From assembly GCA_002269645.1 (NCBI GenBank), contig NIVC01000486.1, positions 62,001 through 126,000 on the forward strand: 64,000 bases of DNA. Direction: 5' to 3'. The stretch is from Macrostomum lignano. Lineage: Eukaryota. The position numbers were made by a program, and so were the translations under genes. This document shows, in pieces, positions 8,737-32,184 of the stretch. Below the pieces are notes generated by a model. That model was not told where the DNA came from, made no database searches, and was given only the letters and a program-made list of their open reading frames with translations. The first letter of the stretch is position 1, and every line of letters begins with the position of its first letter.

Positions 8737-8746
8737 CAATATAAAA

Positions 8747-9721: not shown

Positions 9722-10665
9722 GCTCCTGGGGGGTGGGTCTGGACACCAAAAACGCAAATTAAAAAATCAATAATTCAAATACTATATAAATTATATTCTA
9801 TAAAATGGAAGCAATTTTAGCTCAAATCGACAAACCTAATATAAGAGCTGAAATGGAAGCACAAATTAGAGCAGAAATAGAAGAACAAATTAGAGCAGAA
9901 ATAGAAGCAGAAATTAGAGCAAAATATGAAAAACGTTTAGAAAAGCAATTAGATGATATTGACAACCCTAAACCACAAAGACAAAATGGGGCAGAAGTAA
10001 TAGATATAGATATTGATATAAATACAAATTATAAAGAATATTTTAAACAAATGAAAGATAAATTAAAGACCATATTAGATAACTATACTATAAGACCAAA
10101 TAACAAACGACAGCCAATTAAGTATAAAATAGAAGTTGAAACAGAATTTAAAAAACCAAATATACTTAATGCAAATTCAGAAATTGAAGTAATAAATAAC
10201 TTTTCACAAGAATCATATAAAACATTATTATCAATGGGAAATTACAACAATCAATTTAATCAAGTAGAAGCTGAGTTTGATGAATGGATAGATAAGATGA
10301 CAGAAAACGGATCTGGGTTTATATTTGTTTCATGTAATTCAGCAACAGTAAAGATTGTTCCTATTGAAATTCTTAAAGGGCGATCACATATGAAGCTATA
10401 CTTTAAATCACCAATGATTATAAATCCAGACAATAATGATAATAAATGTTTATTATGGTGTTTATTAATTCATAAATATCATAAACAAGTAGAATCACAT
10501 GTTAATAAAATATATAATTATAGACAATATGAGAATGAAATAATAATGAAAAACATCTCATACCCAGTAGCCATAGATGATATATATAAGATTGAAAAAA
10601 TGAATGGTTTAAATATTAATGTTTTTACAATTGAAGAACCAGAAGAAGAAGTAATTCTAGCCGAT

Positions 10666-10693
10666 CGGACGGAGTCCGCGACCCATCAGGTCG
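10666..10693. other. GC-rich double hairpin in frame inside polB
   Basis: CGGAC-GGA-GTCCG directly followed by CGACC-CATCA-GGTCG; CGAT recurs at a 30-bp offset. Confidence 0.8.
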
Positions 10694-12803
10694 ATAAAGA
10701 ATGGTATAAGAAAAACTGTTATTTAGTAAAACCAGCAACTGATATAACTGCACCAGATCAAATCGATCTTTTGTACATGCAGCGTGAAAATGAAACACAT
10801 TATATATACATAAAAGATATTAGTTCTTTTTTAAAAGAAAATGGAAATAGAAAGCCATTATGCAGAAACTGTTTCACATTTAAATATGATGAAACAGCTC
10901 TTAAAAACCACCAACGATTTTGTTTAGATCATAAATTTACTAATGTTGTAATGCCAGATTATGAAGATGCAACCCTAAAGTTCCAACAACATTATATGGC
11001 AATTAAAAAACCAATAGTAATATATGCTGATTTTGAAGCAACAAATGTTCCCTTAAAAGAATCACAGACGGTATCTGATGGAGAATGCACAAAAAAATTA
11101 GCACAACAGTTTCCGAATAGTTATTGTATATATGTACACTCTGTAGCTGATCATATATTTAAATCAAGGATGATTACTTACCACGGTAAGGACGCAGCAA
11201 AACACATGGCAGAATCATTAGTAAAAGCATTTGAATATATACAAAATCAATATGATAAATTATCAAAAAATATTATTATGACAGATAAGGATAGAGACAA
11301 TTATAAAAATGCAACAAATTGTTTTATGTGCAAAAGATATTTAAGTGGGAAAAATAAGATACGAGAACATTGTCATCTAACGGGAATTTATCGTGGGGCA
11401 GCATGTAGATCATGTAACGCAAAAGAAGGAAAAGGCTGTAAGGAAATACCAGTATTTTTTCATAATGGTTCCGGATATGATTTTCATTTCTTAGTTCGAG
11501 AATTGCTACATTTAGGAAAGGATGAATATGAAGTAAATATATTACCTAAAACATCAGAAAATTACATATCAATAACATATGGTAAGAAATACTCCCACCT
11601 AGTTTTTCTAGACTCCTTGAGATTCTTATCAACATCTTTAGCAAATGTTGTTTCATCATTAGTTCCAAAACCATGGGATTTAGAAATAGTAAAGAAAAAC
11701 TTTCCAATCTTATTGAATCGCTTCAAAAAGGAAAAACTATCCGAGGAAGAACTAATGCTATTAACTCGTAAGGGCATCTACCCATATGAATATGTAACAT
11801 CTAAAGAGGTATTTTCTCATACCGAATTACCCCCAATTGATAAGTTTTATTCAACATTATCACAATCAAATATAAGTGAATCTGATTATGAACACGCGCA
11901 AAAAGTATGGAAATATTTTAATTGTAAAACATTTAAAGATTATCATAATCTATATCTTAAAGCAGATGTTCTCCTATTAGCTGATGCATTTGAAAACTTT
12001 AGGAATCATACATATGAGAACTTCAAAATTGATCCCGCATATTGTTTTAGTGCACCAGGTTTAACATGGGCATGCGGTTTGAAACATACAGATGTTGAGA
12101 TTGATTTACTAACTGATCATGATATGTTGTTAATGATTGAGAGAGGAATTCGCGGCGGATTCTCGGGTGTACTAGGAGATAGATATACTAAAGTAAATAA
12201 TAAATATCTACCAAATTATAATAAAAAAGAAAAGTCATCATATGTATTATATTTAGATGCAAACAATTTATACGGGGGTTGTATGAAACAAAAATTACCA
12301 ATAGCTGATTTCCAATGGGAAAATGACCCCGATTATTACAAAAATATTCCCGAAGGAAGGGGCTGTATCGTAGAAGTGGATTTGCAATATACTCGGGAAG
12401 CAAAAGCAAAAACATATAAATATCCTTTAGCTCCAGAGCATTGTTCAGTTAATGAAAATGATTTATCACAAACACAAAAAGATTATCTTAAAGCAGATAA
12501 TGCAAAACATCTAGCAACAAAAAAATTAATATTAAATTTACATGATAAGAAAAACTATGTAGTGCATTATAAGCTTCTACAATTTTATGAAAAGCAGGGA
12601 TTAAAAGTGTCTAAAGTACATCGAACAATATCGTTTATTGAGGAAGATTGGTTAGCTAAATATATTGATTTTAATTCAAATCAGAGACAGATGTCAAAAA
12701 CAAATTTTGAGAAAGATTATTGGAAATTAATGAATAATGCTTTTTATGGAAAAACGGTTGAAAATATTAGAGATAGAACCCAATTCCATTTAGAAAAGGA
12801 TAT

Positions 12804-13887
12804 TGTAACAGTTGCCTATTATTTTGCTTACTTTGCCTATTTTTGTCTATTTTGTCTACTGATTTCACGTATAATACGAATATTTTTCTAAAAACTACAA
12901 AACATTATTTGTGCCTACATAAATGAATATTTTATCATTAGTAGTAATTATTAGTCTCAATTAGTAGCCTACCGTATAATCTAGTATTTGATTAGTTTAA
13001 ATGCGTCCGCCATTTTGTTAGCAAATTCTATATAAGCAAGAAAAATATATCGAGAGAGGATATTCCTTCGGCCTCCTCCTGCCTTACCTGCTTTGTTCGC
13101 TGAGACCTCCGCTAGTCTAGTTATTCAGCGGTTGTAACTGAACACTGTTCTAAAAATAGCTCCGTCTTAGTCATTTAAAGGCGTTCCGCCTTTCCCCTTG
13201 CGAAGCCTGTACAGTAAGAAGTGTTTAAAACTTCTTCCCCCTTTCCCGGGACGCTCAGTCTGCCCCCCTCCCCCCGAGCTTTGTCTCTTTCCCTTCTCCC
13301 AGCAGAACTGGCGCCTGCCGCTTCTGCTCCTCCCCCCCTTTAGTGGACAGTCCGTCTGCTCAGGTGTACAGCCTTATCCCCTCAGACGTTCAGTCTGCCC
13401 CCCCCCTTCCACCGGCATCCCCGCTCCCAACCCCCAATCCTTCCCAGTCAAAATTTCCCACATTCATTAGGCAGATTGCCTTCTTATCTAATGCTGCCAG
13501 CATTCCCTATTAGCATTTAGAAATCTTCCACCAGGACGCTTTCCCAGGCAACTCCGATCCATCGCGAAGCCCTTAATTCCCCTCTCCCATCTATCTTTCC
13601 CGGACTGAGAATAGAAACTGTGTCTTGCCGCTCGGACACACCACGCCACCAGGAGCAACCTACGGCTTACTCCTGTTAGTAGTATAAATTGCGCAGTTTT
13701 CCCCCGAATTCCCAAGAAATCCCCAATAGGCCCCGACCCCTGTAACGAATTGATAGGAACGCAGCTGAGAAAGGAACCCTACAACAAATTGGTGTCAGCA
13801 ATAGGAAAACTTCCCTCCCCCAAGAGCCCTATAACAAAATTTGGTAACAGCGGTGGGATTTTCTTAATAATAAACAGCCCTATAACA
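12804..13887 (+). mobile_element. Solo LTR (1084 bp) inserted in polB
   Basis: TGTAACA...TATAACA ends, 4-bp TSD ATAT (12800-12803/13888-13891), TATATAA near 13029. GC-richer than the flanking Polinton DNA. Confidence 0.9.
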
Positions 13888-14982
13888 ATATTGATAAAGC
13901 AAAGAAATATTTCTCAAAACCTAACTTTAAAGATTTTATAAAATTTGATGATAACTTTATGGGTATTCATATGAGAAATAAAACAACAAAATTTCTTAAA
14001 CCAATATTTATTGGAATGGTTGTTTTAGATTATGCAAAGCTAGTAATGTATGAATATTATTATGATGTTATAAATAAAACATGGCCAGATAACTATCCAA
14101 TATATGCAGACACCGACAGTTTGGTATTTAAGGTTGAAACACCAGATGTCTATAAAGATATGGAAAAAATTAAGGATACATTGGACACCTCCGACTATCC
14201 GGATAACCATCCTTTAAAATCAGATCAAAATAAAAAAGTTGTACTTAAAATGAAAGATGAATTAAATAGCAAAATCATAACCGAGTTTATAGCAATAAGA
14301 TCAAAATGCTATGCATTTAAAGTTTTAGGACAGGAGGGAGAGGTAAAAAAAATAAAAGGGGTATCAAGAGCGGCAGTTAAAAAGATAACATTTGATGATT
14401 ATAAAAACGTACTTTTAGATTATCTTAATACAATTGAAAATTATCATGCTCCACAATATCGATTAAATTCAGATAAGCATCAGATGTTTGTCATCGAGAC
14501 AGATAAAAAAACATTAAGTCCATTTGATGATAAAAGATATTTAGATGATAAAATAAAAACATATCCATATGGTTTAAAAGAAGAGATAAAAAACATGATA
14601 AAAGATAAAAAACAAAAAGAAGATATAATAAGCAAATATATAGAATACAAAGAAGCAATAAATAATTATTATTACGATTGTGATTGCGAATCCGAATGTG
14701 AATGTGAATATAATAAATATCTAGAATATGAAAAAGATATAGATAATTATTATGCAACATTTCCAAAAGAACTTAAAAAATTAAACAAGGAAAAAGTCTT
14801 GAATAACTGGAAGAAATTAACAGAAAAATTACTTATCGGATAAAATCCGCGACCCTTCGGGGCGGAAAAAAACCAAAGCATGTAATTGTTTAAGCATATC
14901 ATTAAGTTCAATTTCATATATTATTGAAGGCCAATTTTCTTCGCAGTCGTCAGGGTAACTTAAACATTCTTTTATTTTTTTC

Positions 14983-15201
14983 CTAAGTTTTTTTTATTTT
15001 TCTAACAAGACGATCAATTTCAATTTCAATTACTATTTCAGCATAATTAATTGCTTTTTGTATAAAACGTTTTCTTTTATCCAAGTCGTATCGGATAGGA
15101 AACATATCGTCCCCATAATCACTATAAAACATATTATTTATTTTTTTATTAATATAATTAAGTTCACGCTCTTTAGTGATAAGGATAATTTGTATCTCCA
15201 T
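14983..15201 (-). CDS. Small Polinton protein of unknown function
   Basis: AAAATG start, convergent with polB; no recognised motif. Confidence 0.5.
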   Translation of the reverse strand: MEIQIILITKERELNYINKKINNMFYSDYGDDMFPIRYDLDKRKRFIQKAINYAEIVIEIEIDRLVRKIKKT

Positions 15202-15217
15202 TTTCTTATAAAAAAAT

Positions 15218-15550
15218 TTAGTCATCTTCGTCAGTCTCCCAAACGGCAGCCAATTTTACAGTCCTGTCACTCTTTTTATTATTTGTTTGTTTTAGTTTAA
15301 ATTGCAACCCACCCTCGGTGCTGTATTTTATAATGAACGCTTTAGGTTTATTAATAACTAAAACTGGAAAATTTTTAACATCATTCCCACTTAGACATAG
15401 TATTGTTTGCCCATCTAATTGTAAAAATATCGATTGAAGTCCAATAAATTTAACCTGTCTCAAACATATAATATTATATTCTTTATTCTCCAACATATTG
15501 GGTGTGAGATAATTAATCACATTAGAATCGGTTTTGAACCAACTTTCCAT
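15218..15550 (-). CDS. Small Polinton protein of unknown function (110 aa)
   Basis: TAAAAATG start; tightly packed ORF. Confidence 0.55.
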   Translation of the reverse strand: MESWFKTDSNVINYLTPNMLENKEYNIICLRQVKFIGLQSIFLQLDGQTILCLSGNDVKNFPVLVINKPKAFIIKYSTEGGLQFKLKQTNNKKSDRTVKLAAVWETDEDD

Positions 15551-15576
15551 TTTTAATCTAAAAAAATAACAAAAAA

Positions 15577-16095
15577 ATGAAAGACATTTATGAATGTAAA
15601 AAATGTAATGTGACTATGCATAGAGCTCAAACAGCAAGCGGAGATATATATCATACCGGTATGTGCTATTCATGTTCTAAAATATATCAATTTGAAAAAA
15701 CAAAAAAGATTGAAAACTCATATTACTATTTTAAAAACACAATTTTAAGAAATCTTACAAGAGACATTTCTCATCCAATTTTAATTCCCGGAAATAATGT
15801 TTATTTATGTAACAACTTTTTCCATTTAAATAAAGGAAAGGGATTAAGTTCGAAAGACTCCGAAAGGATTTTAATTTTAGTTGGATATTATTTTAATTTT
15901 CTTATTCGAGAGAATACAAAGTTTATAAGGATAGGTAACATACCTAACGAAATGTTATTGAAAAAGTCGTTGAAATTTTTATGTATTGATAAAAAATTTA
16001 AACCTAGAATTACAAGAGAATTACCACTTTGGGAAGAATATATAACGTATGCGTTAGAAAAACTAAACAACATTAAGTTCTACCGCACTACCTGA
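15577..16095 (+). CDS. Polinton protein with an N-terminal CxxC...CxxC putative zinc ribbon (172 aa)
   Basis: ECKKC...MCYSC; AAAAATG start. Confidence 0.55.
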   Translation: MKDIYECKKCNVTMHRAQTASGDIYHTGMCYSCSKIYQFEKTKKIENSYYYFKNTILRNLTRDISHPILIPGNNVYLCNNFFHLNKGKGLSSKDSERILILVGYYFNFLIRENTKFIRIGNIPNEMLLKKSLKFLCIDKKFKPRITRELPLWEEYITYALEKLNNIKFYRTT

Positions 16096-17080
16096 CCTTG
16101 GGCTTTGTACCCCAGTACCAATAGTTTCGGGTTCGTAAATACCTAATGTTTCTATCGGTGGAGCTTTGGGTTTATCGAGTCTCAACTCTTTTAATTCCAT
16201 ATCGGTAAAAGTTTCAACATCTAAAATTCTATTTCGATCTTTTAAATATTTTTCATATAATTCAACCGCCGTTGATAACTCATGAATTGTTATCTCTCCA
16301 TCATCCAATATTTTTTGCACATATAAATACAACTGATTTTTATATTGTTTTGCAATATCTCTTAATGATTTATATTTATCCTTTCGTTTTTTAAGATATA
16401 ATTTAATTGCCATAAGTATTGATAAATTTCTGATTAATTCAAATCCTGATATTGAGCCAATCCTATATACTAAATCCTATATACTAAAAATGAAAATCTT
16501 GCTTGCTTGCTTGCTTGCTTGTAATCGATTAGAGAAAAAATGGCTTAACCGATTTTCATGAGACTTGCACTGTTCGATCAGAAATTTTCCCGTGACGGTA
16601 CATGCATCGTGGCTAAGAAATTGCTCGATGCTAAAGGCATTAAATATTCGAAAAACATGCTTTTTTGCAAAGGTCAAGCAAACTTTTCGACTTGAAATGC
16701 ATTGTACGAATGCTAGAGAAAAAATTGACTGGTTGATTCTGATTCTGAAATAGATTGCATCATAACTGAATTGTAACTCCGACTTGAATCGAAAATGCAG
16801 TGTGGAAGCGTAGCACCAGACTTGATTTATATTGCGTAACCATATTGTTAACTGATACTGACTGACTGAGAAATTGATTATGTCATAACTGCCTCGTGTG
16901 ATTTACTCCATGCTTGGAGTTTTGAAACTTATAATTATAAGTGCTAAAATTCATATTATCAAAACGATGAGAGCTAGCCTAGAGGTAAACAGACTGACTG
17001 CTAAATGCAGGGACGATGGTTCGAATTTTTAGAGAGTGGAATTTTTTTAATTAAAGCTTTTTAACACCAAGAAGAAAACT

Positions 17081-20000
17081 AAAAAATCATAGAAGCGTCA
17101 TGTAAAAAATCATAGAAGCGTCATGTAAACAATCATAGAAGCGTCATGTAAAAAATCATGGAAGCGTCATGAAAAAACCATAGGAGCGTCATGAAAAAAT
17201 CATAGAAGCATCATGTAAAAATCATGGAAGCGTCATGTAAAAAATCATAGAAGCGTCATGTAAAAATCATAGAAGCGTCAAGTAAACAATCATAGAAGCG
17301 TCATGTAAAAAATCATAGAAGCGTCATGTAAACAATCATAGAAGCGTCATGTAAAAAATCATAGAAGCGTCATGTAAACAATCATAGAAGCGTCATGCAA
17401 AAAATCATAGAAGTGTCATGTAAAAAATCATGGAAGCGTCATGTAAAAATCATAGAAGCGTCATGAAAAAATCATGGAAGCGTCATGTAAAAAATCATGG
17501 AAGCGTCATGAAAAAAAACCATGGAAGCGTCATGTAAAAAATCATAGAAGTGTCATGTAAAAAATCATGGAAGCGTCATGTAAAAAATCATAGAAGCGTC
17601 ATGTAAAAATCATAGAAGCGTCATGTAAAAATCATAGAAGCGTCATGTAAAAAATCATGGAAGCGTCATGTAAAAATCATAGTAGCGTCATGTAAAAAAT
17701 CATAGAAGCGTCATGAAAAAATCATAGAAGCGTCATGAAAAAAACATAGGAGCGTCATGAAAAAATCATAGAAGCGTCATGTAAAAAATCATGGAAGCGT
17801 CATGAAAAAAAACCATGGAAGCGTCATGTAAAAAATCATAGAAGTGTCATGTAAAAAATCATGGAAGCGTCATGTAAAAAATCATAGAAGCGTCATGTAA
17901 AAATCATAGAAGCGTCATGTAAAAATCATAGAAGCGTCATGTAAAAAATCATGGAAGCGTCATGTAAAAATCATAGTAGCGTCATGTAAAAAATCATAGA
18001 AGCGTCATGAAAAAATCATAGAAGCGTCATGAAAAAAACATAGGAGCGTCATGAAAAAATCATAGAAGCGTCATGTAAAAATCATAGAAGCGTCATGAAA
18101 AAATCATGGAAGCGTCATGTAAAAAATCATGGAAGCGTCATGTAAAAATCATAATAGCGTCATGTAAAAAATCATAGAAGTGTCATGTAAAAAATCATGG
18201 AAGCGTCATGTAAACAATCATAGAAGCGTCATGTAAAAAATCATAGAAGCGTCATGTAAACAATCATAGAAGCGTCATGTAAAAAATCATAGAAGCGTCA
18301 TGTAAACAATCATAGAAGCGTCATGCAAAAAATCATAGAAGTGTCATGTAAAAAATCATGGAAGCGTCATGTAAAAATCATAGAAGCGTCATGAAAAAAT
18401 CATGGAAGCGTCATGTAAAAAATCATAGAAGCGTCATGAAAAAATCATAGCAGCGTCATGAAAAAAAACCATGGAAGCGTCATGTAAAAATCATAGAAGT
18501 GTCATGTAAAAAATCATGGAAGCGTCATGTAAAAATCATAGAAGCGTCATGTAAAAATCATAGAAGCGTCATGTAAAAAATCATGGAAGCGTCATGTAAA
18601 AATCATAGTAGCGTCATGTAAAAAATCATAGAAGCGTCATGAAAAAATCATAGAAGCGTCATGAAAAAAATCATAGAAGTGTCATGTAAAAAATCATGGA
18701 AGCGTCATGTAAAAATCATAGAAGTGTCATGTAAAAAATCATGGAAGCGTCATGTAAAAAATCATAGAAGCGTCATGTAAAAATCATAGAAGCGTCATGT
18801 AAAAATCATAGAAGCGTCATGTAAAAAATCATGGAAGCGTCATGTAAAAATCATAGTAGCGTCATGTAAAAAATCATAGAAGCGTCATGAAAAAATCATA
18901 GAAGCGTCATGTAAAAATCATAGAAGCGTCATGTAAACAATCATAGAAGCGTCCTGCAGATATCGTAGAAGCGTCATGAAATAATCATAGAAGCGTCATG
19001 TAAAAAGCATAGAAGCGTCATGTAAAAAATCATAGAAGCGTCATGTAAACAATCATAGAAGCGTCATGTAAAAAATCATAGAAGCGTCATGTAAACAATC
19101 ATAGAAGCGTCATGTAAAAAATCATAGAAGCGTCATGTAAACAATCATAGAAGCGTCATGCAAAAAATCATAGAAGTGTCATGTAAAAAATCATGGAAGC
19201 GTCATGTAAAAATCATAGAAGCGTCATGAAAAAATCATGGAAGCGTCATGTAAAAAATCATAGAAGCGTCATGAAAAAATCATAGAAGCGTCATGAAAAA
19301 AAACCATGGAAGCGTCATGTAAAAATCATAGAAGTGTCATGTAAAAAATCATGGAAGCGTCATGTAAAAAATCATAGAAGCGTCATGTAAAAATCATAGA
19401 AGCGTCATGTAAAAAGCATAGAAGCGTCATGTAAAAAATCATAGAAGCGTCATGTAAACAATCATAGAAGCGTCATGTAAAAAATCATAGAAGCGTCATG
19501 TAAACAATCATAGAAGCGTCATGCAAAAAATCATAGAAGTGTCATGTAAAAAATCATGGAAGCGTCATGTAAAAATCATAGAAGCGTCATGAAAAAATCA
19601 TGGAAGCGTCATGTAAAAAATCATAGAAGCGTCATGAAAAAATCATAGAAGCGTCATGAAAAAAAACCATGGAAGCGTCATGTAAAAATCATAGAAGTGT
19701 CTTGTAGAAAATCATGGAAGCGTCATGTAAAAAATCATAGAAGCGTCATGTAAAAATCATAGAAGCGTCATGTAAAAATCATAGAAGCGTCATGTAAAAA
19801 ATCATGGAAGCGTCATGTAAAAATCATAGTAGCGTCATGTAAAAAATCATAGAAGCGTCATGAAAAAATCATAGAAGCGTCATGAAAAAAACATAGGAGC
19901 GTCATGAAAAAATCATAGAAACGTCATGTAAAAATCATAGAAGCGTCATGTAAAAATCATAGAATCGTCATATAAAAAGCATAGAAGCGTCATGTAAACA

Positions 20001-20480
20001 ATCATAGAAGCGTCATATACAAAGCATAGAAGCGTCATATAAACAATCACAGAAGCGTCATGAAAAAATCATGGAAGCGTCATGTAAAAATCATAGAAGT
20101 GTCATGTAAAAAATCATGGAAGCGTCATGAAAAAATCATAGAAGCGTCATGAAAAAATCATAGAAGCGTCCTGCAGAAATCGTAGAAGCATCATGTAAAC
20201 AATCATAGAAGCGTCATGTAAACAATCATCGAAGCGTCATGAAATAATCATAGAAGCGTCATGTAAAAAGCATAGAAGCGTCATGTAAAAAGCATAGAAG
20301 CGTCATGTAAAAAGCATAGAAGCGTCATGTAAACAATCATAGAAGCGTCATGAAAAAATCATAGAAGCCTCATTTAAAAACTAATGAAAGCGTCATTTAA
20401 AAAAATAAGAAGCATCATGGAAGAATAAAAGAAGTGTAATGTAAAAATCAAAAGAAGCGTCATGTCAGACATTAAGGATG
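17081..20480. repeat. About 22-bp satellite array (AAAAATCATAGAAGCGTCATGT, roughly 150 units) inside the Helitron
   Basis: Tandem units with A-tract length variation and recurring higher-order blocks. Confidence 0.97.
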
Positions 20481-21256: not shown

Positions 21257-21295
21257 TTAGGGTTAGGTTAGGGTTAGGGTTAGGGTTAGGGTTAG
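21257..21295 (+). repeat. Interstitial telomere-type (TTAGGG)n tract inside the Helitron
   Basis: Five TTAGGG, one TTAGG and one partial unit. Confidence 0.8.
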
Positions 21296-21762
21296 AAGGT
21301 TGACAGATATTTTTAGATTTCCAAGGCTTATTGGGGGCATTGCTGAGATGTCAAGGGGGGAAGTTGATATGTTAAAGCTGGGGGGGGGAATTACTGACAT
21401 GTCAAGGCTTACAAGGTTTGACAGGAGATTTTTTAAGATTTCAAGGATACATGTAGCTTATTAAAAAAACGTGTAAAGCATTTCTTTGGCTCCCCAACGG
21501 GGGGCGTAGATTGCTAGTTGAAATACCTAAAAATAATTGAGATAAATTAAGAGTTGGAATAGATTGTAAAATACCTAAAACGATTACACATAACATCGAT
21601 AAGCTTCCAAAACCAATATTGAAAAAATCCATATTTCTGATATGGTTTGAAATCCTTCTTACTTTTTTAACATATAAATTATAATCATAGTTAATACGAT
21701 CAACATTACTTAACATGTGACCTTTACGTTGGTTAAAATGGTCACGTTCCCTTTTATCTGCC

Positions 21763-22089
21763 TCAGATACTGACATTTTCGTCTATTTTTAATAGCACCA
21801 AAATGAATTCCCCGCGCTCTTTGGGTATTTGTCCGGAGCTTAATAGGTATTGTATCGGAGTGATTCTTTCTTTTTTCTCCCATTTAAATCCTATTTTCCA
21901 AAACTCTTGAAGTATAATATGATTTTTTAACAATTTAATTAATTCTTGAAGTTTCTTATTATCCTGAACATTCACATGACTAAATAAATATTTGGTATGA
22001 GATTTGTATGTTTTTATATTTGATTCTTGTTTAGGAATAGGAATAATAACATTATTTTGCCGCATCGATGGGGTTCTACTAAAAGCCAT
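21763..22089 (-). CDS. Small Polinton protein of unknown function (108 aa)
   Basis: TATAAAATG start; overlaps the next ORF start. Confidence 0.6.
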   Translation of the reverse strand: MAFSRTPSMRQNNVIIPIPKQESNIKTYKSHTKYLFSHVNVQDNKKLQELIKLLKNHIILQEFWKIGFKWEKKERITPIQYLLSSGQIPKERGEFILVLLKIDENVSI

Positions 22090-23113
22090 TTTATATATAA
22101 ATATTTTATATAGCTACGGGTGGTTTTTCTAAATAACCAGTAGAAGGAAAAACATAACCAAACGATGTGCTACCACAAACGGCTGCGCCACGAATAAAAT
22201 GTGCGGCATCTGCTCCTCCAGTTCGAGCACCAAAACCCATAAGGGTTCCAGCTTTATCTAAAGTTCCCCAATTTCCACTATCGTATGTGAAAACGTTCTG
22301 GCCAATTAGCGTATAAGCATCACCAGCAACATTGTATGTGTTTATTTGATACCAAACTCTTTGATTTAAAATATTAATTTCAAATAAATGCCAATCGCCG
22401 TTATCAATATTTGCATAAGTTATAGTTTGATCAGCATCATTAAGAACATCATTACGAACTGTTGCTCCGTCTGATTTTATATTACTCCAAACAACTCCAA
22501 CTCTATCATGCCATTCACTCGCAAACACAATCAAGCCGGCGTTGGTTGTTAACCCGGATCCAAATTCACTTGTTGGTCGTTCGTGACAATATGCATAAAA
22601 CCAAACCGCATCAGCACCACTTCCTGTGGCATTAGCAACTCGGAAATAGAAGGAGGCGGATATATTACGAAAATGGGTGAAATTAAATTGCAACGCTCCA
22701 GACTGACCACTTGCTTCATCAGTAATTCTAGCTCCATTTTGATAATCAATATAAGTAGCGTCACCAACAAAACTTCCAGTTGGAAAAATATCGCCGGCGG
22801 TGGTTGGATTTTGATATCCAGTCCAATTGCAAATCACAGGCTCGTACAAAGCGGCATCAATCGCGGGTATTCCATCCAATTTTATTTTATCGTTAAAAGA
22901 CATTCGGCCATCCGCCGTTTGGGTTACTCGCGTATCAACATAACCTTTAGTAACAACGGAAGTGTTATCGTTTATAGTAGAGATATTAGTAATTGTATTA
23001 CCACCCATATCAATTGATTGATCAACCACTCCTAAATTTGAGGTAAGGTAGCACGCTTTAGCAGGCAGAGAAAAACAAAAGTTAAAATCAACATAGATTA
23101 CAATTAATTCTTT

Positions 23114-23158
23114 CTACCGACGCGTTTCGGACCAACAATGGCCATCTTCAGGGTCTAG
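23114..23158 (-). ncRNA. Hammerhead ribozyme (Penelope-type, minimal palindromic stem III)
   Basis: ACC-CUGAAGA-UGGCCAUUGUUGGUCC-GAAACGCGUC-GGU core. Confidence 0.75.
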
Positions 23159-23995
23159 TGTATTTTTAACACTCACAACAACTTTATATAAGTGAACAAA
23201 TGTTAACTGTACAGTCCAAAGGGCATGTCATGGGCAGAATTTTCCAAAAATGTTAAGCATATAGATTGCAAGTACATTGTTCAGACTTGTGCCTTTACTT
23301 AGAATACATTGAGCAAATGGCCCGCACCACTATGGGAGAGCTGAATATTCAGATTAGGTTTTTGGTCTTTAATGTACATGGATTCAAGTATGTTGAGTCT
23401 AAAATCAGTTCTACACCGATCAATAATTATAAACTGCTGAGTTTGCTCAATTTCGCAACAACTGTTGCAACTGAGCAGGTGGTCTTGGATAGCCGACCTT
23501 TTCAACCAATGCTCTCTGACTCTGGTGTACAGGTGCCTTTTAGTTTTACCTATATAGGTAATGTTCTGGTCAACAGAACAAGAGAATTTATACACAACAC
23601 CTGCCGCCAGAACAAGAGGAACATGGGATTTCAGTCTACTAACGTATTGGCCAACCTTAGCAGTGCGGAAAACAATCTTAATAGGCGTGTTAAAGAATTA
23701 ACAAGAATACTCAAACCGATTATTGGATTATTGATCGGTGTAGAACTGATTTTAGACTCAACATACTTGAATCCATGTACATTAAAGACCAAAAACCTAA
23801 TCTGAATATTCAGCTCTCCCATAGTGGTGCGGGCCATTTGCTCAATGTATTCTAAGTAAAGGCACAAGTCTGAACAATGTACTTGCAATCTATATGCTTA
23901 ACATTTTTGGAAAATTCTGCCCATGACATGCCCTTTGGACTGTACAGTTAACATTTGTTCACTTATATAAAGTTGTTGTGAGTGTTAAAAATACA

Positions 23996-24040
23996 CTAGA
24001 CCCTGAAGATGGCCATTGTTGGTCCGAAACGCGTCGGTAG
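23996..24040 (+). ncRNA. Hammerhead ribozyme, inverted copy
   Basis: CTGAAGA at 24003, GAAAC at 24026, predicted cleavage after GUC at 24035. Confidence 0.75.
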
Positions 24041-25144
24041 AAAGAATTAATTGTAATCTATGTTGATTTTAACTCCTAAATTTAAATCAAGAATTGTAAA
24101 CGTCTGTCTATAAATCTGGAAGGTTGACAGACCTGGGTTGGTTGAACCCGAGGTTGATGTAAGACAGAACAATCTGAAATATTAATATGTTTTATCAAAA
24201 TTTTGTGTTACATTAATTGTTTGAGTTGAGTTATTTATTTCTACAGAACTAGCCGCAGGTATTAATACATCCCAACTTGTATTGTCATTACTTCCCTCAA
24301 ATCGCCATGATGCTGGGTGTTCGGTTGAAGGTGATGGTCTCCCACGCAAATCAATTTTATAACACATTATTGCGGAAGGGCATTGGACTTGAATCCAATA
24401 ATCGGTTTGAGTATTATTTGTTGCCCAATCTGTTGAATCGTCACCATCAAACGCTTTCCAGCTTGCAAAATCGGTTGTATTAAATTCGGTGCTTGCGGTT
24501 ATTGCAAAACCATTTCCACTCCAATCTGCCATGGTAGGTATGTGACCAGTTTCAACCGTTTGGAATCGATCTTGTTTTGGGGCTCCACCCCCAACTAAAT
24601 TATCAACCTCCGTTTTGGTATAAGAATCAGCAACATTCCGTTTTAAATTTAAGGAATTATCAACTTCGGTTTTGGTATAAGAATCGGCAACATTCCGTTT
24701 CAAATTTAAGGAATTATCAACTTCGGTTTTGGTATAAGAATCAGCAACATTCCGTTTTAAATTTAAGGAATTATCAACTTCGGTTTTGGTATAAGAATCA
24801 GTTATATCTCTTTTCAAATTTAATGAATCATCAATTTGAGTTCGAGAATAAGAATCAGCAATATCTCTTTTTAAATTTATTAAATTATCTATTTCAGTTT
24901 TGGTATATGAATCGGCCGTATTGCGTTTTAAATTGAATGAATTATCTATTTGAGTTTTGGTATAAGAATCTGCAACATTTCTTTTTAAATTTAGTTTAGT
25001 ATCAACTTCACTTTTTTTATAACCTTCATCTTCATTAATATATCGGTTATCTCCGAATGTGACGCTTATTCCACCAGACGTACCACCGCCAGTACTTGTT
25101 GTTCCGTTCCATGAGGGTGTTCCAGAAAATAACATTTTTACTGT

Positions 25145-25585
25145 CTATTTTATAGAGTCTAAAATCGCTTTAAATACTTCGGGGGTTACACGAGCTTCAT
25201 TCGAAAGTCGATATAAAAAATACAACACCGCTTGTCCGCAATAACTTTTGTCAAAGGTTTGAAATTGTTCGTGATGATCTCCACATAAACGATTTTTAGT
25301 ATGATTAAATTTATCTCTTATTTCCTGTAACGGAGGAAGCGCGTATGAATCAAAAAAATAAACAAGTTTAGGTTTGGAATAAACTGCCGACCAATGAACA
25401 CCATTTTCTTTTGTCGTTTCGATGTTGACAATGAAACATCCATATATTGGTAAATCTTTTATCTCATCCCGCATAACATATCTGAATGGTTTTATTTTTA
25501 GTTGCCGCGCCCAATTTGTTAATTCGATATTGCTTGTTGTGTCTGTTCCATATCTTTGTTTAAAATCATCCCACGTCATGGTCAT
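25145..25585 (-). CDS. Adenain-like cysteine protease
   Basis: GVHWSAVY (His), YFFDSY (Asp), QTFDKSYCGQ (Gln/Cys). Confidence 0.93.
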   Translation of the reverse strand: MTMTWDDFKQRYGTDTTSNIELTNWARQLKIKPFRYVMRDEIKDLPIYGCFIVNIETTKENGVHWSAVYSKPKLVYFFDSYALPPLQEIRDKFNHTKNRLCGDHHEQFQTFDKSYCGQAVLYFLYRLSNEARVTPEVFKAILDSIK

Positions 25586-25615
25586 TTTATGTTCCTGAAA
25601 AACTCTTGGTTTTGG

Positions 25616-25756
25616 TTAGTTTTGTAGGTTTGGATTTAACAGTTCCTTTCGGATTTTTTCTGCCTGTAATTGTTTTAATTTTGTTAATTCGATTTCATAA
25701 TTATCTTTTGCATTTTGAACTTTCTCTGATTGTTTTTTTAAACTATTGTTACCCAT
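25616..25756 (-). CDS. 46-aa coiled-coil-like ORF below the ORF-track cutoff (MGNNSLKKQSEK...)
   Basis: TAAAAATG start; fills the gap between the penton and protease genes. Confidence 0.5.
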   Translation of the reverse strand: MGNNSLKKQSEKVQNAKDNYEIELTKLKQLQAEKIRKELLNPNLQN

Positions 25757-25800
25757 TTTTACTATAGGAAACGGACAATGTCCTCGAACCGAAGGTTCGG

Positions 25801-26586
25801 CTAAACCTGTTTTATACGTAAAATCACTGTTATTGACTGCCCACCAAAACTTATTAATCTATCGGTTTCGTCTACAATCCTAATATAAATTGATTGAACA
25901 CTATATTGATTTAATGGGTAATATATTGGGGTTTGAGGTGAAACAATCATTTTCTCTCCAATTGGAACAGCAAGAAATGGGATTGAATAAATAATTCCAC
26001 GTTGAACCAAAACTCCGTTATCGTCTGTTATATAACCGCCGTTTGATATGTCGGTTGTTATATTAATTGTGTTGACTCCGCCCTCGATATTTCCAACTGT
26101 ATCGCCGGTGCTTGATGTGGTAACTATTCGGGAATTAAATCCAAGTATGGTTCTGAGTGAATTTGTAATTGTAAAATCAACCTGATATCCGGATTCTAGG
26201 GAGAGTGTGAATCTGCCAGATGGTAAATCAACACCTATAACAATCGCGCCCGCTACCCAATCGCCGTTAGCTGTTAATTCTCCTTCTATATAAGCGTTCA
26301 AATCAGTATAGCTATACGCACCCGGGCTAACACTAAATGTTGTCCAATTGGCTCCGGAATCTTTAGAATATCTAAATTGATTATTTGTTGCATTAATTAA
26401 TTGAGGCATGTTGAAAACCGAAAATAATATCAAACCTATTTTATAACTTAGGCTTTGATCAAGTTGTAACGGATCGCGCAATTGAATCCGTTGCTCGCTG
26501 GTTGTCATTATAAACTGTAAAGTTGTACTAAATTTTGAATTAGTTCTATCTACCAATTGTTTTATAGTATTTAAATTTGTTGCCAT
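25801..26586 (-). CDS. Minor capsid protein (penton, single jelly roll)
   Basis: TNNQFRY...SPGAYSYTDLN...LRTILGF...PIYYPL...IRIVDETDRLISFGG pattern of Polinton minor capsids. Confidence 0.85.
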   Translation of the reverse strand: MATNLNTIKQLVDRTNSKFSTTLQFIMTTSEQRIQLRDPLQLDQSLSYKIGLILFSVFNMPQLINATNNQFRYSKDSGANWTTFSVSPGAYSYTDLNAYIEGELTANGDWVAGAIVIGVDLPSGRFTLSLESGYQVDFTITNSLRTILGFNSRIVTTSSTGDTVGNIEGGVNTINITTDISNGGYITDDNGVLVQRGIIYSIPFLAVPIGEKMIVSPQTPIYYPLNQYSVQSIYIRIVDETDRLISFGGQSITVILRIKQV

Positions 26587-26634
26587 TTTTATAGTGGTAA
26601 ATCGCCCCGTAGGGTCGCGTTCCGAAGGAACGAA

Positions 26635-27399
26635 CTAAGTCTCTTCTTCCTCATTATCTTCTTTTATCAGATCTCTTAAGATTCGATTTTTCCTTTCTAA
26701 CCTAGGGTTGATATATATATGTTTGTATTGGCTGTCATCCCAAATTTTTTTACACATACTTTTAAATGGTTTTATATCCAACCCGGGATTAAATCTAGCG
26801 TGTATATTTTGTAAATCATAATTATCTAAATCAAACATTACACAACAACTTGCATTGTTTTTTATAATCGATTCTAATTCTCTAAAGGACTGTGTTAGAT
26901 AAAAAGCTCCAATTCCATCTCCTCTACCACTAACAAAAATTTCCTTTTGTAATTCTTGATCGCCGTCGTTAATACAATCATCAAAAATAATTAGTGTTTT
27001 ATCATTTTTTGGAATTTGATGATAGGGTAACCGGGTCGATACTCTAACAGTTGGGGCTCGTTCGGTGATGTTTTCCGGTTGTTGTGCCATTGTTTTACAT
27101 AAATCCTCAATGTCATCGAGTGTAAATCGCGGTTCGTCATCATCCTCATATTGCTCATATGCTCTTAACATTCTAAACAAGACATCTTTTTTTAATTTGT
27201 TTTTTAATCCATGTTTAAGAAATTCATAATATTTTATTCTAGGTTTGTTAGTATAAATTATTAAATTATTATAGTCTATCATTCCATCGGTTGTTAACAG
27301 GTCATAAACAAAGTGTGTTTTTCCTTTACCCGACCCACCAATTACTAAACAAAGAAAAGGATCATTTGGAAATATCTTATTGTGTTTTGCTTTTACCAT
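26635..27399 (-). CDS. A32-like (FtsK-HerA) genome packaging ATPase
   Basis: Walker A GGSGKGKT, Walker B LIIFDD, GR....FYLTQSF motif. Confidence 0.93.
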   Translation of the reverse strand: MVKAKHNKIFPNDPFLCLVIGGSGKGKTHFVYDLLTTDGMIDYNNLIIYTNKPRIKYYEFLKHGLKNKLKKDVLFRMLRAYEQYEDDDEPRFTLDDIEDLCKTMAQQPENITERAPTVRVSTRLPYHQIPKNDKTLIIFDDCINDGDQELQKEIFVSGRGDGIGAFYLTQSFRELESIIKNNASCCVMFDLDNYDLQNIHARFNPGLDIKPFKSMCKKIWDDSQYKHIYINPRLERKNRILRDLIKEDNEEEET

Positions 27400-27484
27400 T
27401 TTTAAAGATAAAATTTAAATTGGTGCGACGGTCGGAGACCTGCGCCGCTTACAGCGGGGCGACGTGCTTTGCACTGCGCTCATT

Positions 27485-28957
27485 TTACAATGGCGCGTCC
27501 CGAACGATAGTGCCATCAGCTTTAGCAATTGATAAATATTCCTCTAGAAACAATACGTGGGCGTCGATTGCCTGATTACCGGTTTTATTAATCTCTAACA
27601 TATAATTAAGTCCAATATTGGCTACGTTTTCTTTCTGTGCCGTTAGATCATAAACAACCACTGGATGGATGTTTAGAAACTCTGTGGGAGTGTACTGAGG
27701 AACGGCAAACGCTTCATTTTTGGCATAATCTTGATAATATTTTATAAAATCATTAACATCATTATTTGCAATATTTAGATTAAGAGGATCTTTAACCGGA
27801 TAGTATTGGTCATCAACCTGCAGGCGGATATTCTGAACATTAAACTCGTTAATAGCCGCAACCGCATTATCTGTTGCAGTGGCCGCTTGTGCTGCTATGG
27901 CACCCGATTGAAGCCAATATAAATCCCCGTTTGCTCTTTTACTCCTTCTATTTGTTATCTTAAACCAAACAAAAATATATCTCACCCGACGTTTTGATGT
28001 CAGTATTTGCCACTGGAATGAATCCTGATTGTTATTAATGGTTCGCATAAAATGTCTACGATTCAAATAAAATATTTCTTGATCATGCGTTAACTGATTA
28101 TCGACATGTTTTAATAGTGGTGCTGTTACCTCGATAGTTGGCACGACTAATTGTATTGATGCTATACTAACTGCTATATCGGTTGAAATCGAGGTTCCAT
28201 AAAGTATCCTAGGCTGATACCCACCAGATATTTGCAACTGTACCCCAAATTTTAATCCTTTCCATACCCGATTTGGTGAGAAGAATCCAAATAGTGGAAA
28301 GATTGAAAAGTCCTGCTCATATGCCGTTGCCGTGGTTAAAACTGCAACTGGGAATTTATTCCGACGATCTATAAAACCGGTGTTAATATCTTTTGTATTA
28401 GTCATAGTGGTTACAACTGGAACTATATTGGTATTAAGGTAAGCAATTAGAGCTGCAGTATCTGCACCAGCTGCGTTTTGTACATTAGGGAAAACTACTG
28501 CTTGACCGTTACCTTTATCAGGCATCCACCCAACATTATCACCAACTTGTTTTGATAAATAAGTATAATTTAAATGTTTCAAAACTCCATTAATCTCTGC
28601 GGGGTTTGATGATGTCTCAACCTCGGCACCATTAACAGTTAGTTGAGCTTGGGAAAAACATTTATAAAACCAATCATTTTCTATTATTATTCCGGATCGA
28701 TCTGCGATATCTCCGGCTGCAAGAGCAGTTCCATCATTTCTAGTATACAACCATCTAACGCGGAAAAATGCATTTTTCATATCCAATATGGTGTTGGTTG
28801 CGCCGATGTCAAAAGCTACCGTTCTGCTAGTAAAGTTATTTGTATTATCACTTGTTGGTAGGGTATAATTTAAATCTCTTGCTCTGGCCTCATTAATATA
28901 CTGGCGGTGCTTTTTGAAATAAAATTTATCACTCCATATAGTTTTTGTTTCAGCCAT
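27485..28957 (-). CDS. Major capsid protein (double jelly roll), intact 490 aa
   Basis: Size, position next to the ATPase and penton, and motifs LDMKNAFFRV, FSQAQLTVNGAEVE, IRLQVDDQYYP, PVVVYDLT. Confidence 0.8.
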   Translation of the reverse strand: MAETKTIWSDKFYFKKHRQYINEARARDLNYTLPTSDNTNNFTSRTVAFDIGATNTILDMKNAFFRVRWLYTRNDGTALAAGDIADRSGIIIENDWFYKCFSQAQLTVNGAEVETSSNPAEINGVLKHLNYTYLSKQVGDNVGWMPDKGNGQAVVFPNVQNAAGADTAALIAYLNTNIVPVVTTMTNTKDINTGFIDRRNKFPVAVLTTATAYEQDFSIFPLFGFFSPNRVWKGLKFGVQLQISGGYQPRILYGTSISTDIAVSIASIQLVVPTIEVTAPLLKHVDNQLTHDQEIFYLNRRHFMRTINNNQDSFQWQILTSKRRVRYIFVWFKITNRRSKRANGDLYWLQSGAIAAQAATATDNAVAAINEFNVQNIRLQVDDQYYPVKDPLNLNIANNDVNDFIKYYQDYAKNEAFAVPQYTPTEFLNIHPVVVYDLTAQKENVANIGLNYMLEINKTGNQAIDAHVLFLEEYLSIAKADGTIVRDAPL

Positions 28958-28991
28958 TTTTTTAAGTTAAAAAAGTTTTTTATGTTAAAAA

Positions 28992-29687
28992 ATGAGCCAA
29001 TTTATGGACGTTGATGGAGAGTTAGCGATTTATAAAGAGAAGCAAAGATATTCTGATTTTGTTAGAAATTTACAAAAAAGAAAGTTAGGAATAGAATTAG
29101 CTGGCGAAAGATTTGCTGCTCCTTTTGTTAATCCTATTACGGGGAAAATTAGTGAACTAGAAAAAACAGATAAAGGCCTTCTGGAAAAAACAGATAAAGG
29201 CCTTCTGGAAAAAATTGCTAAAAATACGGAGCCAAAAGAGGATGAAATTTTGGATGAGCCGCCTGCTTATGAGGTTGATAACGCACTATTGAGAGTTGCA
29301 GAGATTAGGGCTGCAGAAAGGGATGGAGTTGAACAATTTCAAAGAGATGCGCCACGTAGTATTGCTGTTACAGATTTAGGTAGTGGTAATTATCGAATTG
29401 GTGGAGTTGATAAAAATCGAAATGAACTATATAGAGAATTGGGCGGAGCATTTAATATTATTACGAACCCTAGGGTAAAATTTAGCCCCAATTTATATAC
29501 TAGAGGTGAATTAGTAAGTGCAAAAAATTTTTATGATGAGTTAGGAGTACCAGCTATTAAAAATACCAGCTTGTATAAAAGGATTGTTAATTCTATAAAT
29601 AACATGCCGGCTGTTGGTGAAGGATTTAAAACTCCTAGAAAACTTGTTTTAGCTGCCGCGAAAGCTGCTGGACATACAGGTATTTAA
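28992..29687 (+). CDS. Polinton protein of unknown function (231 aa), possibly related to the conserved PZ-type ORF
   Basis: AAAAATG start; VGEGF and LAAAKAAGHTG motifs. Family assignment is tentative. Confidence 0.55.
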   Translation: MSQFMDVDGELAIYKEKQRYSDFVRNLQKRKLGIELAGERFAAPFVNPITGKISELEKTDKGLLEKTDKGLLEKIAKNTEPKEDEILDEPPAYEVDNALLRVAEIRAAERDGVEQFQRDAPRSIAVTDLGSGNYRIGGVDKNRNELYRELGGAFNIITNPRVKFSPNLYTRGELVSAKNFYDELGVPAIKNTSLYKRIVNSINNMPAVGEGFKTPRKLVLAAAKAAGHTGI

Positions 29688-29715
29688 TTAATTGTTAAAT
29701 TTATTTTTTTATAAA

Positions 29716-30330
29716 ATGGAATCTAAATTTTGTAATAAATGTAAAGAAGAGAAAATTTTGGATTATTTTAGATTTCGTAGAGATCAAAATAGATATTATA
29801 GTATTTGCAAACCTTGTGAGAGAAAGTATGATAAAGAATGGTATGAGAAAAATCGTGAATATAAGCTTCAATGGAAAAAAGAATATGATAAAAATAATAT
29901 AGAAAGGCGCAGAAAATATCAAAATGAAAGAAGATTAACTGATGAAAATTACAAACTTATTTTAAACACACGAAATAGAATATATTCTCTTCTAAAATCT
30001 AATAATGCTCGAAAAAATAATCATACTGTTGATTACCTTGGTTGCTCAATTGAATTCTTTACTGATTGGTTAAATTTCACAAAACATTATTATGTGCCAA
30101 AAGATTATATTGGTGTTTTGCATGTTGACCATTTTATTCCTGCTTCATCTTTTGATTATCGCGATGAAGAACAAATTAAAAAGTCTGAAAATTGGAGAAA
30201 TAAAAGATACTTAGTTGCTGTAGATAATATTTCAAAAAATGATAAACAACCAACCATAGAAGAATTTGCAAAACAATTGGTGCTTTCAAGTATTTTTAAG
30301 GCTATTAAAAATGAGCCAATTAGTGTTTGA
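29716..30330 (+). CDS. Free-standing HNH homing-endonuclease-like protein (204 aa)
   Basis: N-terminal CNKC...CKPC zinc motif, basic helical region, YLGCS..F..WL and LHVDHFIPASSFD...N...DNISK, as in giant-virus-type HNH proteins. Confidence 0.8.
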   Translation: MESKFCNKCKEEKILDYFRFRRDQNRYYSICKPCERKYDKEWYEKNREYKLQWKKEYDKNNIERRRKYQNERRLTDENYKLILNTRNRIYSLLKSNNARKNNHTVDYLGCSIEFFTDWLNFTKHYYVPKDYIGVLHVDHFIPASSFDYRDEEQIKKSENWRNKRYLVAVDNISKNDKQPTIEEFAKQLVLSSIFKAIKNEPISV

Positions 30331-31940
30331 AGGAGGATTGTTAGATGTTCAAAAAGGATTAACAAGCTTACCACCAATCTTTACTACTGGAAGGTATACA
30401 AATAAATTACACATCCCATCTTACAACTTCGCGGGTGGAGCTCGAGCTGTGCCCGAGTGGTAGATGCAAAGCTACTGCTAGTCACTATTAGTGGCAACAC
30501 CAGCCGCTCACTCAATCCCCTAAAGCTTCAAGTACCACTTTGTTTTCGAAAGATTACAAAGGAACAGAGGTAACTCCTCTTCCCAACGGTAACAAGCTTG
30601 AAGATAAATATATGGGCAAGAGTGAATCGAAAACCTAACCTCATATGACTTGAGTATGGTTGAGATGCAACGACTGTACGCTGGTGGGCTTGAAGGACTT
30701 AGTCAATCCTTATGATAGCTTAAGACACAGTCTACTCCTTTGTGAAAGCAAAGGTATAAAGGCCGGGTTGACTCGACTCGATCTCCGATTAAATCCTGAT
30801 AATACACCAAAAGCCGATTCAATTCCCATTAACGGTATTGATTGGTTAGCATACTATCATGACTTAGCATACAGAGATGCTGATAAGAACTCACCCGAGG
30901 AAGCATTAAGATTAAAACATGAAGCTGATAGAAAAATGATTCAAGGATTAGATAACTTACAGGGGTTATCGGTAAGCCAAAGATTAACTCGGTGGATGGT
31001 TAAAAAAATCTTACAATCTAAAGTTAAATTTGGATTGGGAATTAATTACAATCAACATGGAAATAATTGTGTTGAGTGTTTATTATTAAGTGGCAGTGGG
31101 TTAAGTTCTGATGAGGCAAAGATTCTTCATAAAGAATATCGAAAACCTAAATTTTATAGAAAAATCATGAACTTCAAAAAGAATGAAATTTGGTATGCTG
31201 ATTTAATGTCTATGCCGATCGAAAGAGGATATAAATATATCTTAACCATATTAGATGGTTTTACTCGATATGCGTGGGCTGTTCCTTTAAAATCCAAAAA
31301 AGGAGAGGATGTTGCGGCTGCTTTTAGAAGTCTTGGAGAAAAAAGTGAACGATCGAACGGAGTTCGCGTTCTTTCAGAACGATTATGTGTTGATGAGGGA
31401 AAAGAATTTTACAATCCTCATATGTATAAATTATATCATTTTGAAAAAGGACAAGAAAGGAAGAAAGGCGCGAATGGGGAGTATATTAATAAAATTTATT
31501 CTATTTATGGAGAAAGTAAAAACGCATTAATAGAAAGATTTAATCGAACTGTAGGTAAGAAATTGTGGTTTCAGTTTAGTCTTAATGGTAACCAAAAGTG
31601 GGTAAAAATATTACCAGACGTTGTGAAAGATTATAACAATTCATATCATTCGGCTATAAAGATGACTCCTCAACAAGCTTATAACAATCCTGAAAAAGTT
31701 AAAGTTACTTTTGGAGAATTTGAAAAAAATAAAAAGAAATCTTTTAAGGTTGGTGATTCTGTTTATATCTATAAATGGAAAAATAAGTTTGAAAAGGGAA
31801 GAAAAGGATATTGGAAAATAAGTGAGAAATTTACCATCAGTAGGGTTTTAAATACCAATCCTACAACCTATATAATTGCTGATAAGGATGGTGAAGAAAT
31901 ATTGGGTTCGTTTTATGAGAACCAATTAATACTAGTTTAA
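30311..31940 (+). CDS. Parvovirus-type phospholipase A2 fused to a retroviral-like DDE integrase, interrupted by a group I intron
   Basis: Exon 1 ends LHIPSYNFAG. Exon 2 (PG)TRLDLRLNPD...INGIDWLAYYHDLAY carries the HD dyad. Integrase motifs WYAD, LCVDEGKEF, IERFNRT, YNNSYHSAIKMTP, then an SH3-like C-terminus. Confidence 0.9.
30437..30762 (+). ncRNA. ORF-less group I self-splicing intron with a P5abc extension (IC/IE-like)
   Basis: P1 CGGGU/GCCCG(30451-55); P3 30498-504/30680-86; P4 30508-13/30620-25; P5a 30526-32/30597-603; P5b with GAAA loop; P5c; P6; P7 A(C)GACUG 30670-76/CAGUCU 30728-33; J8/7 AAGACA; P8; P9 30737-54 with GAAA. The 3' G could be 30761, 30762 or 30770. Confidence 0.9.
31354..31381. 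other. GC-rich double hairpin in frame inside the integrase
   Basis: CGAAC-GGA-GTTCG directly followed by CGTTC-TTTCA-GAACG; CGAT recurs at a 30-bp offset. Confidence 0.8.
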
Positions 31941-31944
31941 TTTT

Positions 31945-32169
31945 TTATTTGAGGCAACAAGGTAGTAAATTTTTTATTACAAACAAAAACAATATTATTA
32001 CTATTATTGTTACTAATATTATTATTGACATTTGTTCAACGGTGATTAGACTTAAATTTTGATTAAGTTCATTAACCGGCACATTTCCGATGTAGGAATA
32101 ATTTACCTTCATTTTTTTATATATATTTTTCATAATAAATGTCGTTTCTGTTATAGAATAATAATTCAT
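31945..32169 (-). CDS. Small protein with one C-terminal transmembrane segment (74 aa)
   Basis: Hydrophobic IIILVTIIVIILFLFVI; AAAATG start. Confidence 0.55.
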   Translation of the reverse strand: MNYYSITETTFIMKNIYKKMKVNYSYIGNVPVNELNQNLSLITVEQMSIIILVTIIVIILFLFVIKNLLPCCLK

Positions 32170-32184
32170 TTTTTAAATATTTTT

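Follow-up and report, generated by a model that had tools for sequence, protein, structure and literature searches.

Double-hairpin elements (DHEs) are known from the mitochondrial DNA of Allomyces and of fission yeasts, and repetitive hairpin elements from that of sponges (PMC10085805, PMC2800124). The Allomyces elements are described as retained in transcripts, and no flanking duplication is reported for them (PMC2800124). Yeast GC clusters such as GC42 are mobile palindromic units with a fast turnover, whose modules merge and are shuffled and whose changes are concentrated in the loops (PMC4478555). These three reports still treat the movement of the gene-less mitochondrial hairpin elements as open. 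The window analyzed here, a stretch of 64,000 nucleotides of Macrostomum lignano (contig NIVC01000486.1, positions 62,001 to 126,000), contains a full-length Polinton/Maverick whose genes carry a comparable kind of sequence, a 30-nt unit with two hairpins. Like the DHEs, the unit is short, GC-rich, gene-less, built from two adjacent hairpins and optional between relatives. We assign a probability of about 0.9 to the reading that it is a selfish mobile DNA unit without a gene of its own.

An initial annotation of the window had noted two covarying 28-nt double hairpins, one in the polymerase gene polB (10666-10693) and one in the integrase gene (31354-31381), with a CGAT tetranucleotide that recurs after 30 bp. 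Both are present as described. In the 24.8-kb Polinton, no other perfect double hairpin of the 5-3-5/5-5-5 geometry has a GC content of 50% or more. In 200 dinucleotide shuffles the mean number of such double hairpins was 0.005, and none of the shuffled sequences reached two. DNA folding yielded z values of -2.7 to -3.0 for both strands of both stretches, whereas the z values for RNA folding were only -1.8 and -1.0. An origin by chance or by assembly error was ruled out by the shuffle test and by the recurrence of the 30-nt differences and of a unit-bearing joint in contigs of other runs.

The expectation that the two elements are insertions of ten residues was confirmed by comparison among copies of the two genes. 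In the integrase, the 30 nt (31352..31381, plus strand) are absent from 29 of the best 30 copies and present in the window only; they lie in frame directly before the second catalytic aspartate, D153. The segment from F130 to D153 comprises 14-19 residues in 115 of the 120 aligned integrases and 24 in the window. In the predicted fold, the extra residues occupy a helix end and the loop that follows, with a predicted local distance difference test score (pLDDT) of about 80 compared to 95-98 in their surroundings, and the core is intact. In polB, the unit (10664..10693, plus strand) adds ten residues in frame to a variable loop in the N-terminal region of the protein-primed DNA polymerase B (pPolB). 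Fourteen of 30 copies could be resolved at this site: three are filled, four are cleanly empty and seven retain a short 3' remnant. The loop spans 44 residues in the window and 18-29 residues in those 13 relatives, out of 29, in which both anchors were found.

A third intact unit at 14835..14864 (plus strand) had been overlooked. It supplies the TAA stop codon (14841-14843) of the C-terminal pPolB frame and thus ends the polymerase of the window a few codons early; the site is filled in 7 of 22 alleles, including that of the window and one with a loss of 1 nt. A degenerate unit (25770..25799, plus strand) lies just 3' of the stop codon of the minor capsid gene. Between the stop of the ATPase gene and the start of the minor capsid gene, a further degenerate unit consists of two hairpins of the second type that stand back to back (26601..26632, no strand assigned), at a hot spot that is rich in alleles. 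A similar hairpin with a 6-bp stem and a GCA loop (8287..8301, plus strand) is found near the inner end of the left terminal inverted repeat (TIR) and is mirrored in the right TIR; it is possibly the source of the family or an old insertion. The C-terminal tail (16075-16110) of the open reading frame (ORF) at 16063-16413 resembles a decayed unit that most copies now use as normal coding sequence.

The two elements of the initial annotation are thus real, and the family to which they belong is far larger. In the 764-Mb genome, the family pattern gave 466 matches, and the reversed control gave none. The genomic context was judged from the first 100 matches listed. For 88 of these, a listed integrase or polB match is no more than 20 kb distant; two others are 22.7 kb away and have the sequences found at site 21733. 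The remaining ten were fetched: seven lie in Polinton genes, the eighth has a short Polinton match nearby, the ninth is part of a TIR-like stretch, and the tenth could not be assigned. At least 97 of the 100 listed matches are associated with Polintons.

In 0.9 Mb of fetched loci, which contain about 30 near-complete copies, a sequence-only pattern detected 145 contexts with 82 distinct 28-mers and no control match. The contexts form 38 clusters, a few of which share one physical site, so that about 35 sites are occupied; five contexts could not be placed on the window, and those that directly follow another unit, 17 in number, were set aside. The sites are distributed over polB, protease, ATPase, integrase, small ORFs and intergenic DNA, with units in both orientations and several hot spots at gene ends and in intergenic gaps. 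No site was found in the major capsid gene of the sampled copies. Presence/absence polymorphism was observed at 21 of 21 aligned sites, each of which has empty alleles, and within genes the length steps are mostly exactly 30 nt. Units occur singly or in stacks of two and three with a 30-nt period. The first and second hairpins (A and B) combine freely, as 36 A and 48 B modules make up the 82 combinations. Two stacked units are also found in frame in a pPolB of locus L146 that has no tblastn match to the pPolB of the window, which implies that new sites require no flanking homology. In a second Polinton family (58% identity in the integrase, 23% in the capsid protein), 8.5 kb of one copy contained no unit, and another copy contained one, at a site common with the main family. 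Separately, a full unit was seen in the apparent TIR of another Polinton family (L162:400-450), and another unit (L161:399-428), which is not part of any of the Polinton genes mapped, lies upstream of an ORF with weak similarity (E 6e-4) to Eco47II-like nucleases.

The unit sequence family was not found outside the organism in metagenome and viral contigs, where related Polinton loci were not found either. Viral contigs yielded one match for each of two patterns, the first lying in a GC-rich phage gene and having no stems, and metagenome contigs yielded at least 118 matching stretches. Among the 120 matches scored over three scans, one had perfect stems and nine had one mismatch; all ten are located in loci with 58-73% GC and were read as chance or unrelated occurrences. 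A search of Rfam with positions 8000-33000 gave no match at E 0.5. In three runs guessed to be RNA, polB contigs showed 30 nt of gaps within 13888-14839, which is no proof of transcription.

The unit consists of a leading dinucleotide, which is AT in 113 of the 145 contexts, a 13-nt hairpin A and a 15-nt hairpin B, each of which begins with C and ends with G. The YWTCA loop proposed for the second hairpin is not a feature of the family, since hairpin B canonically has a 6-bp stem and a 3-nt loop. Pairing was counted on the 82 distinct 28-mers collected with the sequence-only pattern; kinship among the variants is uncorrected in these values. The pattern leaves six stem positions free; five of them are paired in 93-98% of the variants and one in 67%, and all six values exceed the maximum of 2000 column shuffles. 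Two to four types of Watson-Crick pairs and few G-T pairs were seen at these positions. GNA triloops, which are stable in DNA mini-hairpins, occur on either strand in 14 of the 36 A modules and 22 of the 48 B modules, compared to 12.5% expected by chance. Watson-Crick covariation and GNA triloops suggest that the fold is adopted by single-stranded DNA. Once folded, the unit carries a tail of 2 nt at its 5' end, whereas the 3' end is recessed; the symmetry of its ends extends over 2-4 nt only.

Insertion is oriented and has precise ends; it occurs 5' of a purine, mostly at G|AT, and in most cases the leading dinucleotide is supplied by the unit itself. A purine follows the insertion point in 37 of 37 targets, T occupies position +2 in 34, and G position -1 in 19 (p 2e-6); a few rows in these counts were mis-trimmed by the script. 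A symmetric GATC target was rejected, as C is found at +3 in only 10 of the 37 (p 0.085). Three sites had hinted that the target mimics the 3' arm of the unit; the number of matches between the arm and the target flank is, however, at chance level (40 versus 40.5, p 0.59). The CGAT flanks do recur at 30 bp, but they are not an obligatory duplication, and the unit is to be read as AT plus 28 nt. Both flanks are AT in 23 of the 38 clusters, which resembles a duplication. AT also stands to the left of the unit at 14836, 14956 and 30314 as well as at three positions close to 11085, but there both the right side and the empty alleles have GA, GT, AC or AA, so that the AT has arrived with the unit. 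Together with sites of the opposite kind, considered below, this means that a duplication is not obligatory and that a two-base overlap can come from either partner.

Within genes, the units persist because 30 nt keep the frame and because the surviving sites are loops or termini. In 56 site-by-sequence cases in ORFs, a stop codon fell into the used frame six times, compared to 9.8 expected. Five of these stops fall within eight codons of the end of the protease or the ATPase, and for the sixth the frame is probably mis-assigned. When the eight terminal cases are left aside, 1 of 48 cases contains a stop compared to about 6.8 expected; the cases are not independent. Inserts of other lengths occur in non-coding gaps. 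Two related optional GC-rich hairpin modules are stacked between the major capsid and ATPase genes (27425..27478, no strand assigned) and differ from the unit in flanks and lengths, and more are found near 22100 and in alleles of loci L096-L154, some of them joined to standard B hairpins. This suggests that a length of 30 nt is favored only because it preserves the frame.

The proposal of the initial annotation that the hairpins form a structure-selected mobile mini-element comparable to the fungal mitochondrial DHEs is supported by presence and absence among copies, by the approximately 35 sites and by the covarying stems. For its movement, a nuclease-assisted route through single-stranded DNA is the explanation we prefer, at somewhat less than even odds. 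Extrachromosomal strand-displacement replication is established for protein-primed replicons. During such replication of Polintons, the unit would move as folded single-stranded DNA, with donor and target strands meeting in the replication compartment; this would account for the near absence of units from host DNA. Hairpin-recognizing nicking or cut-and-join at G|AT would release the 30-nt unit, which, closed up, would form a dumbbell with a joint that again reads G|AT, and the freed unit could join into a new G|AT site. Judged from their domains, the candidate enzymes are the HNH/endonuclease VII-type protein of the Polinton and the endonuclease VII domain of pPolB. A heteroduplex between a filled and an empty allele would present a four-armed junction, and its cleavage by the candidate enzyme may favor spread at occupied sites. 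In the most specific form of this proposal, the unit would be a DNA parasite of minimal size that exploits a viral replicon. Its two hairpins would mimic a four-way junction, and the HNH/endonuclease VII-type nuclease of the virus would excise it, rejoin it at G|AT and drive it into empty alleles. This version is tentative and on balance unlikely. If it were true, the junction-nuclease route could also account for the mobility of the mitochondrial DHEs.

Several observations weigh against the preferred route or fit it poorly. In 25 of the 82 variants, an A-G or A-A mismatch is found at one of the stem positions. Three or four sites have a left dinucleotide that copies a non-AT target (AC/AC, GT/GT), which a model entirely without duplication does not predict. 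As a variable cassette (amino acid identity mostly 55-99% among full-length matches) that was found in only about two thirds of the fetched copies, the HNH ORF may be an unrelated passenger of the homing type. Endonuclease VII domains are common in Maverick pPolBs, with many relatives that may lack units. Finally, a free or circular unit was not seen among the assembled contigs, the only material searched for it.

The strongest competitor is a template switch by pPolB. At an overlap of 2-4 nt (GAT or CGAT) between co-replicating copies, the polymerase would copy the unit and then switch back, so that no dedicated cutting enzyme would be needed; stacks, module swaps and double stem changes would result from slippage and fold-back correction. 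This accounts for the confinement to Polintons, the mixed origin of the left dinucleotide from donor or target, the tandem stacks and the shuffling of A and B, the single-module and B-B inserts as well as the remnants, and the double change in a stem of the integrase unit that only this copy has. However, nearly every site shows precise ends, no flank of the donor travels with the unit, and the chance-level agreement between 3' arm and target flank leaves an overlap of only about 3 nt to be used. Precise ends and the lack of additional homology between arm and target favor cut-and-join over template switching, albeit not decisively, and we regard the template switch as doubtful but deserving of attention.

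It is less plausible that an HUH transposase of the rolling-circle type acts in trans, supplied by host Helitrons or a co-infecting virus, with the single strands of Polintons as its target. Oriented insertion, hairpins and a non-obligatory duplication are traits of such enzymes (PMC10288648), and the genome contains at least 150 matches to Helitron Rep. On the other hand, the Y1 transposase (PF01797) has no match in the genome, while the control responds in 6 of 14 cases, and host DNA, into which Helitrons insert, is almost free of units. A longer, autonomous partner with the left end of the unit was not found either: for the main A modules, the left-end hairpin without its partner hairpin gave 9 matches versus 12 for the control, and five of the nine are units with a 2-nt loss. 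We consider this explanation quite improbable.

Even less can be said for the integrase of the Polinton mistaking the folded unit for a DNA end and joining it. In favor of this, the enzyme is encoded in cis with its DDE residues, and the unit folds with a 2-nt 5' tail and a recessed 3' end; the integrase's own insertions, however, have 6-bp duplications and AGT ends, the units have neither, and the proposal is very unlikely. That the hairpins are selected cis-signals, as had been suggested for the two key enzyme genes, and serve transcript ends, packaging or replication pausing would fit the hot spots at gene ends and the hairpin in the TIR but hardly survives the empty alleles at every aligned site, the mixed orientation, the many units in the middle of genes as well as in protease, ATPase, small ORFs and intergenic DNA, and the occurrence of the integrase unit in a single copy out of 30.

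The host element (8002..32823, plus strand) has TIRs of 326 bp, AGTAGT ends and a 6-bp target duplication (7996-8001 and 32824-32829). It encodes pPolB, integrase, an A32 ATPase, protease and capsid proteins, as is characteristic of a Polinton/Maverick. Pfam matches were obtained for pPolB with its endonuclease VII domain, for the rve integrase and for the A32 ATPase; the genes that we take to be those for protease and capsid proteins, from their position and the usual gene order, have no Pfam match. A search for capsid homologues returned three proteins without DNA context. More than 100 close copies exist in the genome (the best 120 of 1375 integrase candidates were scored, most of them being 91-97% identical).

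The pPolB gene with its internal endonuclease VII domain (9805..14843, plus strand) is broken in the window by an insertion of 1.09 kb at about 12800-13888, which is richer in GC, has TG..CA-like ends and resembles a solo long terminal repeat. At L146:3031-6180 (minus strand), in the Polinton copy on G000:C166, the polB slot is occupied by a different pPolB of 1050 residues (PF03175, E 2e-18), the one without a tblastn match mentioned above; the flanking genes are 85-97% identical, which amounts to a swap of the whole polymerase. The integrase (30936..31940, plus strand) is of the retroviral-like rve type and has the residues D89, D153 and E200. The stand-alone HNH/endonuclease VII-type ORF (29716..30330, plus strand) matches phrog_1035 (E 3.7e-10), and its 3' end adjoins the unit hot spot at about 30314. 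Its neighbors in the Atlas are unnamed viral proteins and, under 0.9, HNH clusters. With full-length matches at about 55-99% amino acid identity compared to 91-97% for most integrases, it has the appearance of a rapidly swapped cassette.

The Polinton of the window is about 7 kb longer than its relatives due to a 3.4-kb array of 22-23-bp repeats (17080-20465) and other insertions. One of these (23080-24074) has perfect inverted arms of 348 bp and divides a fiber-like gene; each arm contains a hammerhead-like core without an Rfam match, presumably reminiscent of Penelope-like elements. The surrounding DNA is rich in minisatellites, and a host repeat, 300 bp or longer, flanks the Polinton on both sides (1-300 and 33941-34240, 95% identity).

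Several classes of short mobile DNA can be compared with the unit. Rickettsia palindromic elements (RPEs) are selfish palindromes that are translated in frame as parts of proteins; the unit shares this property and is much shorter. Bacterial repetitive extragenic palindromic (REP) sequences and REPINs are short DNA hairpins that are moved in trans and are marked by a GTAG or CGTC tag. An origin of this type, by means of REP-associated tyrosine transposases (RAYTs), was rejected, as the tag is absent from the 82 variants and the genome lacks a match to PF01797. Helitrons begin with TC and end with CTRR. Since the unit ends with CG and its A travels with it at several sites, it is not a non-autonomous Helitron, for which insertion between A and T of the host is described (PMC10288648). 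Nor is it a miniature inverted-repeat transposable element or another class II transposon, as its end symmetry falls short of terminal inverted repeats and a constant target duplication is missing. No description of such a unit in Polintons or giant viruses was found in the literature, in which the coverage of subscription journals was incomplete.

What makes the family valuable is its large number of alleles, from which the insertion rule can be fixed and the range of candidate movers narrowed. More than 100 related copies in one genome, in which about 35 sites are filled in some alleles and empty in others, make the exact ends of the unit and its oriented target readable, and the small replicon offers few candidate enzymes, each of which can be tested on short oligonucleotides. 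The units also reveal a Polinton family that exchanges DNA among its copies in a compartment closed to host DNA, and virus genes to which selfish DNA contributes loops of ten residues as well as new ends.

The closest relatives in behavior remain the mitochondrial elements. In contrast to the DHEs, to which it is likened by description and not by sequence, the unit belongs to a nuclear-integrated Polinton family on many large contigs, has a fixed 30-nt form that keeps the frame, enters core virus genes at many sites and uses an oriented target. A flanking duplication is absent at no fewer than six positions, apparent at the three or four non-AT sites and ambiguous at the 23 AT/AT clusters, whereas none is reported for Allomyces (PMC2800124). 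With clusters of the GC42 type, the unit shares the merger and shuffling of palindromic modules; GC42 is described with AG or ACT direct repeats, while the unit is shorter, mostly has AT at its flanks and does not require a duplication (PMC4478555). The unit thus behaves like the mitochondrial double-hairpin elements and the yeast GC clusters, and by its location and its ends it is a member of neither.

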